From the NCBI GenBank assembly GCA_041660005.1, contig JBAZXG010000003.1:835-64834 (forward strand): a stretch of DNA of 64,000 bases, in the 5' to 3' direction. The position numbers were made by a program, and so were the translations under genes. Below the pieces are notes generated by a model, which was not told the DNA's origin, searched no databases, and was given only the letters and a program-made list of their open reading frames with translations. Of this stretch, positions 3,203 to 61,192 are shown one piece after another (the stretch's first letter is position 1; the number at the start of each line of letters is the position of its first letter). This DNA comes from Patescibacteria group bacterium. Lineage in GTDB: Bacteria; Patescibacteriota; Patescibacteriia; GWA2-46-9.

Positions 3203-4963
3203 ATGGCTGCACGATTTGGCACGCCTCCGCCGGAAAAAAGGGGATCCAACTCTGTACGACTGCGTGTTGTTAAAACAGGAGTTTTATTGGTCGTTGCGGC
3301 CATTGTCTTACGGCTTTGGCAGCTCCAGGTTATTGATCATGCGGCGTACGCACAATTATCTCTTGGACAGCAAGCAACCTATGAATTGTTGACTCCGGAG
3401 CGGGGGAAGATTTTTGCAACTCAACGCGGTGCCAGTGGTGGTGAAGAGCTTGTGCCGCTCGCCGTTAATCGAGATGCCTATTTCATTTTTGCAAACCCTC
3501 GTCTGATCGAGGATCCAAAAGCAGCGGCTGAGGCGCTCGCCGGACCGCTCAAAAAAAGTGTCGATGAATTGTTACCGCTTCTTGATAAGCCGGATGATCC
3601 CTATGCGCCGCTTCTCCATCGAGCCGGCGCAGATGTAGCCGCAGCAATACGTGCGTTGAACTTACCCGGCATACAGATGATAACGGAGCGCGAACGTTTC
3701 TACCCGAACAATAATGTCGGCAGTCATGTGTTGGGCTTTGTGAGCTACAAAGACGATAAGCTAGTCGGACAGTATGGCATTGAAGGAACATTGAATAGCA
3801 AGCTCGCTGGAACTGCGGGAAGCATTCAGTCAATCCAAAGTCCGGGTGGCGTCTGGATTACACTCGGGGATCGCGACGTCAAAGAAGCCGTTGACGGAAG
3901 CAGTGTCGTACTCACAATTGATTGGACCGTGCAATTTTATGCCTGCCGTGCGCTCGATGCTTGGGTGGCGAAGCATGGCGCTACGGGTGGCAGCGTCATT
4001 GTCATGAACCCAGCAACCGGTGCAATTATTGCTATGTGCGGCTCGCCTGATTTTAATCCGAATGTTTTTAATGAAACAGAAAAAATTACCGCGTTTAATA
4101 ATCCGGCTCTCTTTTTGAATTACGAACCAGGATCAGTGATGAAGGGTCTCACCATGGCTGCGGCCATCGACCAGCAGCGTGTGACACCAACCTCCACGTA
4201 CGTTGATACGGGTTCGGTAACGTTTGGCAGAAGTGTCATAAAAAATTCTGATAATAAAGCACACGGCGTGCAAACAATGACGCAGGTGTTGGAAGAGTCT
4301 CTGAACACCGGGGCTATTTATGCCATGCGGCAAGTAGGTCTTTCAGTGTTCAAAAAATATCTTGAGGACTTTGGTCTTGGTTCTGTAACCGGCATTGATC
4401 TCGAAGGAGAGGCGGCTGGTAACCTAAAGAGTCTTTACCAAAATAATGAAATCTACGCAGCAACGGCTTCTTTTGGGCAGGGGGTCACCGCTACGCCATT
4501 GCAAATGGTTGCTGCCTATGCGGCTATAGCCAATAATGGGAAGTTAATGCAGCCGTACCTTGTGCAAGAAGTTAAGCATCCTGATGGCTCAGTAGAAACG
4601 CACAGCAGTAAAACAGTGCGTCAGGTCATCAACCAAAGGACCTCAGCACAAATTAGCGGTATGCTTGCTCGGGTGGTTACGAACGGTCATGGTAAAAAAG
4701 CTGCGGTTCCGGGCTATGTTATCGCAGGAAAAACGGGGACGGCGCAGATTCCAAGAAAGGACGGTAAGGGGTACGAGTCTGGTTCGACTATTGGTTCATT
4801 CATTGGCTATGGACCGGTAAGTAACCCCAAGTTTGCTATGCTGGTGCGTATTGATCGCCCGCAAGACGTTCAATTTGCTGAGTCTTCGGCGGCGCCGCTA
4901 TTTGGCGATTTGGCAAAATTTATACTACAGTATTATGAAGTTCCGTTTGATAATATAAAATAA
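3203..4963 (+). CDS. ftsI: Peptidoglycan D,D-transpeptidase (class B penicillin-binding protein, FtsI/PBP2)
   Basis: 586 aa with an N-terminal TM anchor, a PBP dimerisation domain, and the transpeptidase motifs SVMK (SxxK), SDN and KTGT. Confidence 0.9.
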   Translation: MAARFGTPPPEKRGSNSVRLRVVKTGVLLVVAAIVLRLWQLQVIDHAAYAQLSLGQQATYELLTPERGKIFATQRGASGGEELVPLAVNRDAYFIFANPRLIEDPKAAAEALAGPLKKSVDELLPLLDKPDDPYAPLLHRAGADVAAAIRALNLPGIQMITERERFYPNNNVGSHVLGFVSYKDDKLVGQYGIEGTLNSKLAGTAGSIQSIQSPGGVWITLGDRDVKEAVDGSSVVLTIDWTVQFYACRALDAWVAKHGATGGSVIVMNPATGAIIAMCGSPDFNPNVFNETEKITAFNNPALFLNYEPGSVMKGLTMAAAIDQQRVTPTSTYVDTGSVTFGRSVIKNSDNKAHGVQTMTQVLEESLNTGAIYAMRQVGLSVFKKYLEDFGLGSVTGIDLEGEAAGNLKSLYQNNEIYAATASFGQGVTATPLQMVAAYAAIANNGKLMQPYLVQEVKHPDGSVETHSSKTVRQVINQRTSAQISGMLARVVTNGHGKKAAVPGYVIAGKTGTAQIPRKDGKGYESGSTIGSFIGYGPVSNPKFAMLVRIDRPQDVQFAESSAAPLFGDLAKFILQYYEVPFDNIK

Positions 4964-4966
4964 TTT

Positions 4967-6268
4967 ATGCGCAAACTTTTTTACGCCTATTTGGCACTTC
5001 TGGCAAAATTATCGTTGCGCCGTTATAAGCCGCTCGTTATAGCAGTAACGGGTTCGGTGGGCAAAACAACGACCAAAGACATGATTGCTGCGGTGTTGCA
5101 GCAGCGGTACCGCGTGCGCGCGAGCGAGCGCAGTTATAATAACGAACTAGGTCTTCCGCTTACGATCCTTGGCGCGCCAAGTGCGAGTAGTTCTGCTCTG
5201 GGCTGGCTTGGCATTGTCGCAAAAGCAACAGTACAAGTTTTTGGCTACCAGAGGGGATATCCTCAAGTATTAGTGCTTGAGATGGGGGCTGATCATCCCG
5301 GAGACCTTGCTTACCTAACGTCAATAGCGAAACCCGACATTGCCGTGCTGACTGCCATAGCGCCGGTTCATTTAGAATTTTTTAAAAATATCGAAGAGGT
5401 CGCTCGTGAAAAAAGGAGCATTTTTAAGAGCTTGAAACCAAACGGCACAGCGATTTTGAACGAGGACGACAATGTTGTGTCCGCTACGAAAGTTGATGCA
5501 AATATGCGAACTCTTCGTTATGGAATGTCTGACAATGCTGGCATCAAAGGGAGCGACGTTAATATGCGGTTCTCACTTGGTCAAGGTTCGGAAGAAGCGA
5601 AGGGGGAAGTGAATTTTAAAATTTCACATGAGGGTTCCTCGGTTCCTGTTCACCTTGACGGAGTCTTGGGAGAGCCCGCGGTTTTGTCAGCGCTTGCCGC
5701 GTCATCTGTAGCTTTGAGTCTTGGTATGAACCTCGTGGATATTTCGGATGTGCTTTCCGCAACCTACAAGGGAACGCCTGGGCGTTTGCGATTGTTACCG
5801 GGAATAAAAGGAACGACTGTCATTGACGATTCTTATAACGCCTCTCCCGCTGCCATGATTGCCGCAATTAACGTGCTTGTCGCAGTGCCGAAAGACAAAA
5901 AGAATATGCGATGGGCAGTACTGGGCAGCATGGCTGAGTTGGGAACTGAAACGGCTCATGGGCATGAGCTAGTGGGAGCAGAGCTTGCGAAGCAGAGAAT
6001 AGACGGGTTAGTCACCGTCGGAGAAAGAGCGAGAATGATAGCGCAGACAGTTCGCGAAAAGGGAATGGATGCGAGAAACATTTTTTCGTTTGCAAAGGCG
6101 GAAGAGGCAGGCCATTTTTTGCAGGAACGGTTAGAGCCAGGGGATGTCGTGCTCATCAAGGGTTCGCAAGTCGTACGCATGGAGAAAGTTGTTAAAGAAA
6201 TTATGGCGGAGCCGAGTAGGGCTTCTGAGTTACTTGTTCGTCAAGGTCCCGAGTGGCAGGGTCGCTAA
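4967..6268 (+). CDS. murF: UDP-N-acetylmuramoyl-tripeptide--D-alanyl-D-alanine ligase MurF
   Basis: 433 aa. Mur-ligase P-loop AVTGSVGKTTTKDM, the DDSYNASP motif, and dcw-cluster context. Confidence 0.9.
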   Translation: MRKLFYAYLALLAKLSLRRYKPLVIAVTGSVGKTTTKDMIAAVLQQRYRVRASERSYNNELGLPLTILGAPSASSSALGWLGIVAKATVQVFGYQRGYPQVLVLEMGADHPGDLAYLTSIAKPDIAVLTAIAPVHLEFFKNIEEVAREKRSIFKSLKPNGTAILNEDDNVVSATKVDANMRTLRYGMSDNAGIKGSDVNMRFSLGQGSEEAKGEVNFKISHEGSSVPVHLDGVLGEPAVLSALAASSVALSLGMNLVDISDVLSATYKGTPGRLRLLPGIKGTTVIDDSYNASPAAMIAAINVLVAVPKDKKNMRWAVLGSMAELGTETAHGHELVGAELAKQRIDGLVTVGERARMIAQTVREKGMDARNIFSFAKAEEAGHFLQERLEPGDVVLIKGSQVVRMEKVVKEIMAEPSRASELLVRQGPEWQGR

Positions 6269-33315: not shown

Positions 33316-33385
33316 GTATTTGCCAGGAGTGAACGCTGACGCTACACTGCTGGAATCTTATCAGTAGTTAGTGGTGATTCTTTTG

Positions 33386-33475
33386 GTTCCAGTTTCGGGG
33401 TGTAGTATACCGGTAGTACGCATGCATGGGGTGCATGTAGACCGGGTTCAATTCCCGGCACCCCGAAACTGGAAC
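33386..33475 (+). repeat. 10-bp inverted repeat (gttccagttt / aaactggaac) directly abutting tRNA-Pro, extending its acceptor stem into a roughly 17-bp continuous helix
   Basis: 33386-33395 is the exact reverse complement of 33466-33475. The pairing is contiguous with the 7-bp acceptor stem. Confidence 0.8.
33396..33466 (+). tRNA. tRNA-Pro (anticodon GGG), CCA not encoded
   Basis: Acceptor CGGGGTG/CACCCCG with C1-G72 and A73, the bacterial tRNA-Pro identity elements. Anticodon stem CATGC/GCATG with loop ATGGGGT. T-arm CCGGG-TTCAATT-CCCGG. Confidence 0.85.
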
Positions 33476-33536
33476 GAAGGGACGGCTTTTGTCTATTGTA
33501 ACGAAGTAAAATACTTGAGCTATTTGATTCACAAGC

Positions 33537-57115: not shown

Positions 57116-58888
57116 TTGGAATGCTTCTCTTTACCTTGGCTCCGCTCTTGCGCTATTAAGATGTTGTCATACGTTTGGCAGCTGGGTAATCAGCCGGGAG
57201 GAGCGCCAAGTAAACCATCCGATATTCAAACTATAGTACGCGCTATTGTTCAGGCGCGCGGATTTAGTAGTGAACATGATATTGACCTTTTTTTAAATCC
57301 CGATTACGGGCGTGATGTTCACGATCCTTTTTTGTTCGCCAGTATGCGTATGGTGGTTGATCGTATTTACAAAGCGATTCAGCGCTCTGAACGCATTGTC
57401 GTTTTCGCTGACTACGATGCAGACGGTGTGTGTAGTGCGGCGGTAATGGTGAGCGCTCTTGAGGCCTTAGGCGCTCGAGATATTGAAGTATATATACCGC
57501 ACCGTGAAGACGAAGGATATGGGCTTAATATGGGTGCTATCCAGAAGTTTATTGCGTCAGATACTAAATTATTGATTACACTCGATTGCGGCACAACAAA
57601 TGTTGAAGAAATTGCCTCAGCGAAAAGCGCCGGTGTTGATGTCATTGTCATTGATCACCATCATGTGCCAGAAGAACTACCCGGGGCGTATGCATTACTA
57701 AATCCAAAAATGCCCGGCGAAAGTTACCCGTATCACGATTTGGCCTCAGTTGGTATGGCTTTTAAAGTTGCGCAGGCGCTATTCAAAGATCGTGTGTCGG
57801 GCTTTCCAGAAGAGCGGGAACGTTGGTTGCTTGCCGAAAAATGGCTATTAGATCTTGTGGCCATAGCGACGGTAACTGACTTGGTGCCGCTCACCGGCGA
57901 AAACAGGGTGCTCCTAAAGTATGGGTTGATTGTTCTCAATAAAACGATGCGGCCAGGTTTACGAGCGTTGATAGAGGAGTGTGGTGAGATCAATAGTGCC
58001 ATTACGGCAGAGACCATCGGTTTTCGCATCGGACCACGTTTAAATGCCGCTGGACGCATGGGTCATGCCATCGATGCCTACAATTTATTGATGGCAAAAA
58101 ATGACGTCGAAGCGACCACTTTGGCTAAAACTTTGAGTGATGCTAATCGCGCTCGACAAGTATTGACCGAAAAAGTAACTGCGGCCGCGAATGCTGAGCT
58201 TGAAGAAAATAAGAATGATCGTGTTCTGGTCGCCATTGGTAACGGTTGGCCAATTGGGTTAGTTGGGTTAGTTGCCAGCAGATTACTTGAACGTCATAAT
58301 CGTCCCGTTCTTGTCATCAGTAGGACCAGTCGCGGGCTTATCGGTTCAGGCAGGAGTGTTCCTGATTTTAATATTATTGAGGCAATGCATACCGTGCCGG
58401 ACCTTTTTGTGAAGTTTGGCGGTCACGCGCAAGCATGTGGATTTACATTGCCTGACGATGCGGCAGCTGATGAGTTGCGCTTGCGACTTAATACTTTAGC
58501 AGCTGTGCAGTTCTCGGAAGGGGTACGTGCCCCTGATCTAGAGCTAGCGGGAGTCTTAGAGTTGCGTCATGTACAATTAAATTTATTCAGCGAACTGCAA
58601 AAACTTGAGCCATGTGGTATGGGGAATATGCGCCCGATTTTTCTTTTTAGTAAACTTACGGTTGTCCACTTTGCTGCGGTTGGTGTCGACAAAAAGCATT
58701 TGAAATTGATGCTGAGTGATCACGACGGGCAGATTGTTACGGCGATTGGGTTCAAACTCGGTGCCTGGGGCGAACGCTTGACGCTTGGGGACCATATCGA
58801 CATTGCGGCAGAGATTATCAAAAATGAGTGGCGTGGATCGAACGACTTACAGCTTCGCGTTGTTGATCTCCGCCGGACACTATCATAG
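57116..58888 (+). CDS. recJ: Single-stranded-DNA-specific exonuclease RecJ
   Basis: 590 aa. DHH motifs (VFADYDADGVCS, DHH at IVIDHHH), the DHHA1 domain (GGHAQACG) and an OB-fold C-terminus. The start may be the internal ATG at 57161. Confidence 0.88.
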   Translation: MECFSLPWLRSCAIKMLSYVWQLGNQPGGAPSKPSDIQTIVRAIVQARGFSSEHDIDLFLNPDYGRDVHDPFLFASMRMVVDRIYKAIQRSERIVVFADYDADGVCSAAVMVSALEALGARDIEVYIPHREDEGYGLNMGAIQKFIASDTKLLITLDCGTTNVEEIASAKSAGVDVIVIDHHHVPEELPGAYALLNPKMPGESYPYHDLASVGMAFKVAQALFKDRVSGFPEERERWLLAEKWLLDLVAIATVTDLVPLTGENRVLLKYGLIVLNKTMRPGLRALIEECGEINSAITAETIGFRIGPRLNAAGRMGHAIDAYNLLMAKNDVEATTLAKTLSDANRARQVLTEKVTAAANAELEENKNDRVLVAIGNGWPIGLVGLVASRLLERHNRPVLVISRTSRGLIGSGRSVPDFNIIEAMHTVPDLFVKFGGHAQACGFTLPDDAAADELRLRLNTLAAVQFSEGVRAPDLELAGVLELRHVQLNLFSELQKLEPCGMGNMRPIFLFSKLTVVHFAAVGVDKKHLKLMLSDHDGQIVTAIGFKLGAWGERLTLGDHIDIAAEIIKNEWRGSNDLQLRVVDLRRTLS

Positions 58889-58889
58889 A

Positions 58890-59321
58890 ATGAATAACAT
58901 GAAGAAAGTCGTCCATATTCATACCGATGGGGGAGCCCGAGGAAACCCAGGGCCGGCTGCGCTTGGTGTTTATATTACGGACGAGCTAGGAGTGCTGTTG
59001 CAAGAATTTGGTCGTTATCTCGGTATCGCTACTAATAATCAGGCGGAGTATCAGGCGTTGATTGCAGCTCTTGAGGCGGCAAAAAAATTTGAGCCAGAGT
59101 TAGTGCATTGTTATCTTGATAGCGAGTTAGTAGTCAAACAAATGAAACGCGAGTACCGGGTAAAGCATGTAGATCTGCAGCCGCTTTTTTTAAAGGCCTG
59201 GAATGCTGCGGCTAGTTTCAAAAAAATTAGCTTTACGCATGTGCCAAGAGCAAGAAATAAAGAGGCCGATCGACTGGTCAACGCAGCCCTTGATGCTGCT
59301 CAAGACGCGGTTGACAAATAG
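58890..59321 (+). CDS. rnhA: Ribonuclease HI
   Basis: Track ORF 58785..59321, but its N-terminal part overlaps recJ. The ATG at 58890 gives MNNMKKVVHIHTDGGARGNPGPAALGV... with the RNase H catalytic residues D-E-D-D (DGG, AEYQAL, DS, NKEADRL). Confidence 0.85.
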   Translation: MNNMKKVVHIHTDGGARGNPGPAALGVYITDELGVLLQEFGRYLGIATNNQAEYQALIAALEAAKKFEPELVHCYLDSELVVKQMKREYRVKHVDLQPLFLKAWNAAASFKKISFTHVPRARNKEADRLVNAALDAAQDAVDK

Positions 59322-59360
59322 CCACTTTTTTTGTTACTCTAGCACTATTATCAAGATAGT

Positions 59361-59763
59361 GACATCGAAAAAGAGGTCAGAGAATACTGGGCGGCCGCTT
59401 CGACAGTGATGTCGGAGAGGAAAGTCCGAACACCACCTCGCAAGAGGTATAAGGATAGTTCCTAACGGGAACCGCAGTGGCGGCAACGCCATTGTAGGGC
59501 CAGTGCCACAGAGACAATACTATCCGCCAACAGCTACGCAGTTGCTGGCGGAGAAGCGTGAAAAGTTGGGCGGTGTACATTTTTGTGCTACGCCTGTTCC
59601 TACCGCGCGAGCGGCAAGGATGGTAAACCCTATCCGGTGCAAGAGCAAATTTGGTAGCTCGCTTGATCCGTCAGGCAACTGACGGGCTAGAGAGATGGTC
59701 GCCGCTCGGAACGTCTGAGTACAGAATTCGGCTTATAAGTATTCTCTCCTCTTTTTCGATGTC
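59361..59763 (+). repeat. 26-28 bp inverted repeat bracketing rnpB (gacatcgaaaaagaggTCagagaatact / agtattctctCCcctctttttcgatgtc), P1 plus a 16-bp perfect outer extension
   Basis: 59361-59388 pairs with 59738-59763, with only a 2-nt internal mismatch. Confidence 0.8.
59378..59750 (+). ncRNA. rnpB: RNase P RNA (bacterial type A), rnpB
   Basis: P4 5' strand GAGGAAAGTCCGAAC at 59415-59430 and the conserved 3' element ACAGAATTCGGCTTAT at 59721-59736 (consensus ACAGAAcCCGGCUUA). P1 is agagaatact / agtattctct. Ends are approximate. Confidence 0.85.
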
Positions 59764-59773
59764 AGTAGCATAA

Positions 59774-61192
59774 ATGAAGCGCACGGAGCTATTTTTTTCA
59801 ATACTTTTAGTCCCTCTAGATTTTTGTGCTCTTCTTCTTGCTGCTCTAGCGGCGCAGAGGATACGGTTTCTTGATGTGGTCGAAGGTATTCGGCCTGCGC
59901 TGTACAGTATTGCGACGGAACGCCTGGTACTGTCAGCCAGTATTATTGCTGTGGTGTGGATACTTTTTTTCTCGCTCGCTGGGCTTTACAGTAGGCGCAT
60001 TACCGACCCTTTTTCTAACGAATTTTTGAAAATTATCTCTGCTTGCTCTGCTGGTCTCGTGCTTGTGGTTTTCATTGTTTTTTTCAAACGGGAACTTTTT
60101 TCTTCTCGCTTTGTGATTTTAGTAGCATGGTTTTTAGCAATATTTTTTGTAACAGCACTTCGTTTTTTTGTTCGAAAGATGCAGCAACTGCTTTTTCGCT
60201 TCGGTTATGCTGCTCGACGTATTGTTATTGTAGGAAAAAGTAGCACGGTAGTGGAATTGAAAAATCAGATGACCATGCATCCTGAGTCAGGATACAGAGT
60301 TATTGCTGTTGTTTCTCCCGATGAGCATGGTCTTGCTGAGCTGCAGGCACTTAGCAAGCCTGGTGTACTGGACGAAGTTATTTACGCAGATGCAGATTCG
60401 TCGAACGAAGAACGCATTCTTTTTTTAGAATTTGCCGAAGAGCGCCATCTTAACTTTCGCTATACACCTGACTTACTGCAGTCAACTATTCGCCGACCCG
60501 TGGTCAATTTTGATATTGGTGTACCTTTGATTGAGGTTCCTGCGACAAAAATTGAAGGGTGGGGGAGGATATTTAAAAGAGTTTTTGATTTTGCGGCCGG
60601 CGTTTTTGGTCTTGTGCTCTTTATGCCTGTTTTTGCTCTTGTGGCAGTCGGCATTTTCATGGAAACGGGGTTGCCTGTTTTTTATGCATCTCTGCGCGTT
60701 GGACGTCGGGGAACTTTTGTCGTTTATAAATTTCGTTCCATGTACTTGCGTGACTGCACTGGTAGTAATTATGGGGGTGCAGCAGCACAGGCCCTTTATG
60801 ACCAGCTTGTTGCCACTAGCGGATCGCGCGGTGGTCCTGTACCTAAAGTTATTAACGATCCGCGTGTTACGCGTTTTGGTAAATTTATACGACGCTATAG
60901 TCTCGATGAATTGCCACAGTTTTGGAATATTATAAAAGGTGACATGAGTCTCATTGGGCCACGTCCGCATTTGCCTTGGGAGGTGTCCCGTTACGAAAAA
61001 CATCACCGCAAGGTACTCGCCGTGAAGCCGGGTTTGACAGGACTAGCGCAAGTGAGCGGTCGCTCTGATCTCGATTTTGAAGAGGAGGTCCGATTGGATC
61101 GTTACTATGTGGAACAGTGGTCACCGCTGCTTGATCTTGTTATTATCCTGAGAACTGTTGGTGCGGTTATACGCCCGCGGCGCGCTTTATGA
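59774..61192 (+). CDS. Polyprenyl-phosphate sugar phosphotransferase (bacterial sugar transferase family, WbaP/WcaJ-like)
   Basis: 472 aa. Four or five N-terminal TM segments and a C-terminal catalytic domain (KFRSM, DELPQFWNIIKGDMSLIGPRP). Confidence 0.85.
   Translation: MKRTELFFSILLVPLDFCALLLAALAAQRIRFLDVVEGIRPALYSIATERLVLSASIIAVVWILFFSLAGLYSRRITDPFSNEFLKIISACSAGLVLVVFIVFFKRELFSSRFVILVAWFLAIFFVTALRFFVRKMQQLLFRFGYAARRIVIVGKSSTVVELKNQMTMHPESGYRVIAVVSPDEHGLAELQALSKPGVLDEVIYADADSSNEERILFLEFAEERHLNFRYTPDLLQSTIRRPVVNFDIGVPLIEVPATKIEGWGRIFKRVFDFAAGVFGLVLFMPVFALVAVGIFMETGLPVFYASLRVGRRGTFVVYKFRSMYLRDCTGSNYGGAAAQALYDQLVATSGSRGGPVPKVINDPRVTRFGKFIRRYSLDELPQFWNIIKGDMSLIGPRPHLPWEVSRYEKHHRKVLAVKPGLTGLAQVSGRSDLDFEEEVRLDRYYVEQWSPLLDLVIILRTVGAVIRPRRAL

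Follow-up and report, generated by a model that had tools for sequence, protein, structure and literature searches.

To our knowledge, the maturation of the RNase P RNA has been described in only a few model bacteria, and not at all in Patescibacteria. In Staphylococcus aureus, rnpB shares a transcript with a neighbouring gene, and RNase J trims this transcript as far as P1, the helix in which the two ends of the RNA pair (PMC3937233). The leader-trailer helices that enclose the rRNA precursors are cut by RNase III and have, in addition, an RNase III-independent role that requires at least 17 bp (PMC11404451). For the CPR, Lui et al. 2021 (PMC8172020) report RNase P RNAs with helix extensions, without P13, P14, P16 and P17, and with scores below the Rfam thresholds, an extended P15, a missing P12 and a missing UGG motif also being described; the available portion of that article, to which this account is confined, mentions neither a long P1 nor leader-trailer pairing. 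Within open-access text, we found no description of a long P1, a leader-trailer stem or an RNase III step for rnpB. What is new at the locus described here is a clade-specific, covariation-supported closing helix of 26 bp on an RNase P RNA of known class.

The locus lies in the window, by which we mean the whole stretch of 64,000 nucleotides that was analysed. The organism is a Patescibacterium near Candidatus Uhrbacteria; its RnhA is 100% identical to P0001 ('ribonuclease HI family protein [Patescibacteria group bacterium]'), and the next-closest relatives of this protein come from Candidatus Uhrbacteria. An earlier note on this DNA had placed an RNase P RNA gene between rnhA and a glycan-synthesis operon, with the start codon of a sugar transferase only 10 nt beyond a long duplex, and this is the arrangement that we find. 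Upstream of rnpB are lepA, recJ and rnhA, all on the + strand; downstream, the ATG of the sugar transferase (59774) stands 10 nt past the helix, and two GT1/GT4 glycosyltransferase genes follow on the + strand. The order lepA-recJ-rnhA-rnpB-sugar transferase is found again in relatives, and rnpB adjoins a sugar transferase in more distant Patescibacteria as well. In the window recJ and rnhA are almost contiguous (recJ end 58888, rnhA start 58899), and in relatives they abut or overlap, by 4 nt in L161 and L165 (loci fetched for comparison carry L numbers); a RecJ protein search of the genome contigs returned no relatives. The features to which the text refers are as follows.

58899..59321, + strand: rnhA, RNase HI family, 140 aa, stop codon at 59319-59321 (Pfam PF00075, PF13456).
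59311..59316, + strand: -35-like TTGACA, overlapping the last rnhA codons; part of a putative rnpB promoter.
59335..59340, + strand: -10-like TACTCT of the same putative promoter; transcription predicted to start near 59347, some 14 nt ahead of the helix.
59357-59360 with 59764-59767: marginal pairing, three pairs around a G/G mismatch, with 50% of cells paired across lineages.
59361..59376, + strand: outer helix, 5' strand, pairs 26 to 11, GACAUCGAAAAAGAGG (exact complement and covariation).
59377..59378, + strand: 2-nt bulge UC (TC in DNA) between the outer helix and P1, on the 5' side.
59379..59751, + strand: RNase P RNA, bacterial class A (RF00010 limits).
59748..59763, + strand: outer helix, 3' strand, pairs 11 to 26, CCUCUUUUUCGAUGUC (exact complement), with U5 at 59752-59756 inside.
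59774..61192, + strand: sugar transferase (Bac_transf), first gene of the glycosyltransferase operon (Pfam PF02397, E = 1.8e-59).

The identity of the gene, which the earlier note had read from a P4 strand and a 3' element, is borne out by cmscan against Rfam 15, which returned RF00010 (RNaseP_bact_a) at 59379-59751 on the + strand with 181 bits (E = 8e-57), against a gathering score of 100 bits. The score places the RNA in RF00010, and the match covers model positions 1-367 of 367; 34 model positions of the P15-P17 region are missing, an absence that is common in CPR (PMC8172020). Both diagnostic elements were located, the P4 strand GAGGAAAGTCCGAAC at 59417-59431 and the 3' element ACAGAATTCGGCTTAT at 59721-59736, and the architecture is full-length: P1 to P4 are present, as are ACAGAA and GAGGAAAGUCC, the strands of the pseudoknot. 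P1 has 10 bp, formed by 59379-59388 (AGAGAATACT; as RNA, AGAGAAUACU) with 59738-59747 (AGTATTCTCT; as RNA, AGUAUUCUCU). By its sequence the gene is an unremarkable representative of bacterial class A, and its product is predicted to act catalytically on pre-tRNA.

Beyond P1 the gene is closed by further pairing. The flanks 59361-59376 (GACATCGAAAAAGAGG) and 59748-59763 (CCTCTTTTTCGATGTC) are exact reverse complements over 16 bp, just as the earlier note had claimed, and when Rfam was consulted about the ends, as it had proposed, the model limits fell at 59379 and 59751, leaving the 16-bp arms outside the family consensus. The extension continues the 10-bp P1 across the 2-nt bulge, so that the long duplex said to close the whole RNA amounts to 26 bp in all. 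At -33.4 kcal/mol the flank duplex is far more stable than shuffled flanks (-10.4 +/- 2.8; z = -8.1, 0/2000 as low), the 16-mer arm occurs once in the window even at 3 mismatches, and the minimum-free-energy fold of 59345-59775 includes the whole helix. The marginal pairing of 59357-59360 with 59764-59767 is probably not part of the element.

A comparison of rnpB flanks in related genomes, which the earlier note had suggested as a search for compensatory changes, was made across six lineages, in all of which both flanks are available and the gene order is the same. These are the window and the following.

L001 (= L002, L003, L160): Uhrbacteria CG10_48_11, rnpB about 370 nt.
L004-L008 (= L135): Uhrbacteria 46_10 / GWA2_46_9, rnpB about 900 nt.
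L155: metagenome contig, rnpB about 1039 nt.
L164: metagenome contig, rnpB about 918 nt.
L165: metagenome contig, rnpB about 410 nt.

An unedited MAFFT alignment put the outer helix of the window out of register, and two bulge nucleotides were deliberately removed from the window and from L001; after this edit the strands of the six lineages align without gaps when counted from the inner end of P1. Pairs 11-26, the outer helix, show pairing in 96.9% of cells, and 12 of these 16 pairs have changed on both sides, the other 4 being invariant; for P1 (pairs 1-10) the corresponding figures are 95% and 8 of 10. The outer helix is thus as well supported as P1 itself. Neither result that the earlier note had named as counting against its reading, model ends that take in the arms or a lack of covariation, was obtained. 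Pairs 27-30, by comparison, are paired in 50% of cells and are unsupported, and when the 3' partner was slid by 1-3 columns only 44-52% of cells paired. None of 500 shuffles was as good on four of five measures, which include pairing, double changes and the covariation score, and 1/500 was on the number of further pair types; a five-lineage alignment gave the same outcome. Window and L001 are a close pair, as are L155 and L164, and the six lineages therefore amount to about four independent comparisons. The helix ends at pair 26, in the same register, in all six, and the longest uninterrupted pairing is 24 pairs in L165 and 23 in L155 and L164. The junction of P1 and the outer helix carries the bulge in the window and a 3x1 internal loop in L001, and has no bulge in the other four lineages. 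L161, whose RnhA is the third closest to that of the window, could be read on the 5' strand only, its contig ending within rnpB. Over pairs 1-26 the six lineages have 137 Watson-Crick cells, 13 G.U, 0 A.C and 6 other. The pattern of change indicates that selection acts on the pairing at the RNA level, on the rnpB strand, and we put at roughly 0.85 the probability that selection maintains an RNA-level helix here whose role is to define the ends of the RNase P RNA or to protect them.

How exceptional such a helix is can be judged from rnpB loci of many phyla, collected by a P4 18-mer scan of species-representative genomes; closing helices were measured next to the GGCUUA motif with loops of at most 3-4 nt, raw RNAduplex pair counts being inflated by large loops. 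Among the matches listed, the median closing helix is about 15 bp (85 distinct loci), lengths run continuously from about 8 to 31 bp, and the window is second longest of the 85 at 29 bp including marginal pairs. Helices of 20-31 bp occur elsewhere too, with 31 bp in L058 (Rhodothermales) and 19-24 bp in several Acidobacteria, in visibly different sequences, and in more distant Patescibacteria (L134, L141, L143, L144, L149, L153, L154, L157, L162, L012) the helix has 10-17 bp and a canonical terminator comes after it. The 26-bp form is therefore clade-specific and stands at the long end of a continuous distribution, as no separate class.

Set beside the family model, the RNA agrees with RF00010 in its full-length match, its P4, its 3' ACAGAA..GGCUUA element and a P1 made from the two ends of the RNA, and differs in having a closing helix of 26 bp where the family consensus has about 11, the 16 extra pairs lying outside the model; a P1 that is usually 10-15 bp is here lengthened to 26 bp. 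With the pre-16S and pre-23S leader-trailer helices it shares complementary flanks around an entire stable RNA, a length of at least about two helical turns, and covariation, and as in helix 1 of 23S the stem runs on into the helix of the mature ends. It thus has the enclosing architecture, the length (26 bp against at least 17-20) and the compensatory change of a processing stem, whereas the enclosed RNA is RNase P RNA, the occurrence is limited to one clade and the cutting is putative. The analogy with the rRNA stems is plausible. Like rnpB of S. aureus, the gene stands among genes of the same strand without an intervening terminator, and in both P1 has a proposed or possible part in blocking degradation of the 5' end; the S. 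aureus RNA, however, is of class B with a P1 of normal length, and its co-transcribed gene is upstream, where here the putative one is downstream.

The parallel that the earlier note had drawn with a tRNA-Pro locus also holds. The tRNA-Pro(GGG) gene at 33395-33467 has no encoded CCA, and its 5' leader GTTCCAGTTT (33385-33394) pairs with the discriminator and trailer AAACTGGAAC (33467-33476), so that the acceptor stem gains 10 bp and reaches 17 bp (z = -4.5 for the flank duplex against shuffles). Such leader-trailer pairing is absent from the other two tRNAs of the window (Glu, Gln).

In the sister lineages the RNase P RNA carries large insertions and reaches about 900-1040 nt (L008 4493-5389, L155 9387-10425, L164 687-1599), and its RF00010 scores of 92.7 (L008), 69.2 (L164) and 47.2 bits (L155) are below the threshold of 100. 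In L008 an element of about 115-135 nt occurs twice within rnpB at about 90% identity, once at 4526-4661 in place of the P3 hairpin and once at 5228-5344 in place of a small hairpin before ACAGAA. The element ccccgcacctattttgc...ggcaaaataggtgcgggg is found within rnpB in L008, upstream of it in L164 and downstream in L155, which suggests a mobile structured insert. In L144 (6447-6658; the same in L146) an ORF of 70 aa with a GIY-YIG match (PF01541, E = 9e-12) lies inside the RNase P RNA gene, in an extension of the P12-region stem (CCGCCC/GGGCGG), and may be either an intron or a retained insertion. Three further loci (L145 950-1150, L140 585-1470, and L150) carry the 5' half of rnpB up to CCAGTGCCACAGAGACAATAC and then unrelated sequence, the 3' ACAGAA..GGCUUA element not being found within 800-1500 nt; in L145 a sugar-transferase-like ORF begins about 100 nt later. 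They could be split genes, carry a very large insertion or result from misassembly.

Upstream of the helix, a motif TTGAC[A/G]-N17/18-TA[C/G]NNT precedes rnpB in six lineages (window, L001, L161, L165, L004 and L155), its -35 box overlapping the last codons or the stop of rnhA in the window and in several relatives, and we infer that these conserved hexamers are the rnpB promoter. Between the -10 box and the helix lie 20-21 nt in the window and L001, 31 in L155, 58 in L004, 5 in L161 and 8 in L165; the L161 and L165 transcripts would start where the helix does, at its outer end. A pattern scan found no terminator-like site in 58500-59360, nor any in 59700-59774, including the space between the helix and the ATG, and no comparable promoter-like site was seen in the window ahead of the ATG at 59774. 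In L165 (3930-3956) a TACAAT stands 7 nt before the ATG of the sugar transferase, past the rnpB terminator, and would give a leaderless mRNA.

A pairing of this regularity might also have arisen for reasons other than the ends of an RNA. The arms form an exact inverted repeat, and promoter-like hexamers can be read across them on both strands, as would suit a palindromic site bound by a protein, an inserted element ending in inverted repeats, or complementarity by coincidence. We hold a DNA-level feature or chance to be very improbable, given a z of -8.1 against shuffles, arms that are repeated nowhere else in the window and pairing that is maintained by double changes in six lineages. The excess of G.U over A.C cells (13 against 0) means that only the + strand RNA makes the full helix, which excludes a purely DNA-level palindrome; palindrome and mobile-element ends were both rejected on the unrepeated arms and the 0 A.C cells. 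Another explanation is that P1 together with GAGG/CCUC, followed by the U5 at 59752-59756 facing A5, acts as a P1-based terminator in place of a hairpin. Among the matches listed, terminator-less rnpB loci do have the longer closing helix (median 15 vs 12 bp; Mann-Whitney p = 0.003; 127 loci), and a T5+ run follows GGCUUA within 40 nt in 33 of 89 terminator-less loci as against 11 of 89 in a control stretch; U5-U6 lies within the 3' strand of the window, L001 and L164. L165, however, combines the same 26-bp helix, free of any U run, with a canonical terminator directly downstream; in L004 and L155 no run of U is as long as 5; and L136, L027 and L064 (Patescibacteria) have no terminator, yet their helices are only 10-18 bp. 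Seven pairs beyond the U5 of the window covary, and that stretch must therefore be transcribed and selected. Instead of a local G+C-rich hairpin followed by a U run, as in an intrinsic terminator, the stem is long-range and the U5 is internal and unconserved, and we know of no demonstration of termination by a stem that closes a 350-nt loop. We accordingly consider a terminator unlikely, and a long helix as terminator substitute was dropped as the main explanation, L165 having both and L136, L027 and L064 neither. As a separate observation, the T5+ runs of the 33 loci (within the L014-L133 set; examples are L036, L110, L061, L039, L064, L022, L063 and L080) mostly lie just past the 3' strand of P1 and are often faced by an A-rich 5' leader, and P1 itself may be the terminator stem in those species.

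If the helix instead serves the ends of the RNase P RNA, it might be cut or kept. Transcription would begin at the conserved promoter overlapping the rnhA stop codon, pass through rnpB and, in the window, enter the sugar-transferase gene; the 26-bp duplex would form after synthesis of its 3' strand and would set the ends of the RNase P RNA, with RNase III cutting within the outer 16 bp to give an RNase P RNA with a somewhat long P1 and a short-leader 5' end for the downstream mRNA; the remaining duplex would then stop RNase J (5'-3') and PNPase (3'-5'). Helix length and regularity here fit those of RNase III substrates such as tracrRNA:crRNA duplexes and the rRNA stems. Being near-perfect over 24-26 bp, the duplex should be such a substrate, for which reason a cut in its outer part is slightly favoured. 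The genes rnc, rnj and pnp are reported to be among those kept in at least 90% of CPR genomes (PMC12641178). Where the enzymes are one endonuclease specific for double strands and two exonucleases that stop at stable duplexes, a long closing helix would be a natural means of defining the ends of a co-transcribed stable RNA; tblastn returned no match for rnc within the 64-kb window, which is part of the genome, or in the fetched loci. By analogy with the rRNA stems, we give nearly an even chance to the proposal that RNase III cuts inside the helix and so frees the RNase P RNA. Against cutting, the helix is continuous with P1 in 4 of 6 lineages, with no conserved bulge or internal loop to mark a cleavage site; the -10 box lies 5-8 nt before it in L161 and L165, so that the primary 5' end may equal the end of the helix; and closing helices of 20-31 bp in other phyla are part of a continuous length distribution. 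The same observations speak for the alternative that the whole 26-bp helix is kept in the mature RNA as a permanent long P1 that protects the ends, these being set by the start of transcription or by RNase J and PNPase trimming halted at the duplex, and that it ties the 5' and 3' ends together for folding, most needed by the 900-1040-nt RNAs of the sister lineages. The closing helix of the window is second longest in the continuous series of 85 loci among the matches listed, the junction of P1 and extension lacks a conserved irregularity (bulge or loop in the window and L001 only), transcription is predicted to start right at the end of the helix in L161 and L165, pairing stops abruptly and consistently after pair 26, and L165 keeps the helix in full despite a terminator of its own; in S. 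aureus, P1 has been proposed to shield the 5' end from RNase J (PMC3937233). A helix that is never cut is a real possibility, given here somewhat under even odds; against it, 24-26 bp of near-perfect duplex should be cleaved in a cell with RNase III, which CPR genomes generally keep, and the RNA of the window, with no terminator, still has to be separated from an mRNA that starts 10 nt on. On balance we slightly favour cutting over keeping the whole helix. Under either fate the long P1 probably serves to mark the RNA ends or to protect them, in the manner of the stems that flank rRNA.

For Patescibacteria, whose RNase toolkit is reduced, a conserved 26-bp leader-trailer helix offers a testable handle that predicts both the positions of the ends and the enzyme. 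The annotated ends of rnpB in the clade are probably wrong, model matches falling 18 nt short on the 5' side and 12 nt short on the 3' side, and at the Rfam threshold the 900-1040-nt RNase P RNAs of the sister lineages escape detection altogether. Should the helix be no more than a long P1, it would modestly extend the variation already known in the family. A further, distinctly tentative proposal, again by analogy, is that this clade makes its RNase P RNA as it would an rRNA, by RNase III excision from a terminator-less transcript through a dedicated leader-trailer stem, the same cut giving the 5' end of the glycan-operon mRNA. Were this so, the output of the tRNA-processing ribozyme would be coupled to the expression of a cell-envelope operon, and the 10-bp helix of tRNA-Pro would suggest that genomes left with RNase III, RNase J and PNPase alone use such stems generally.
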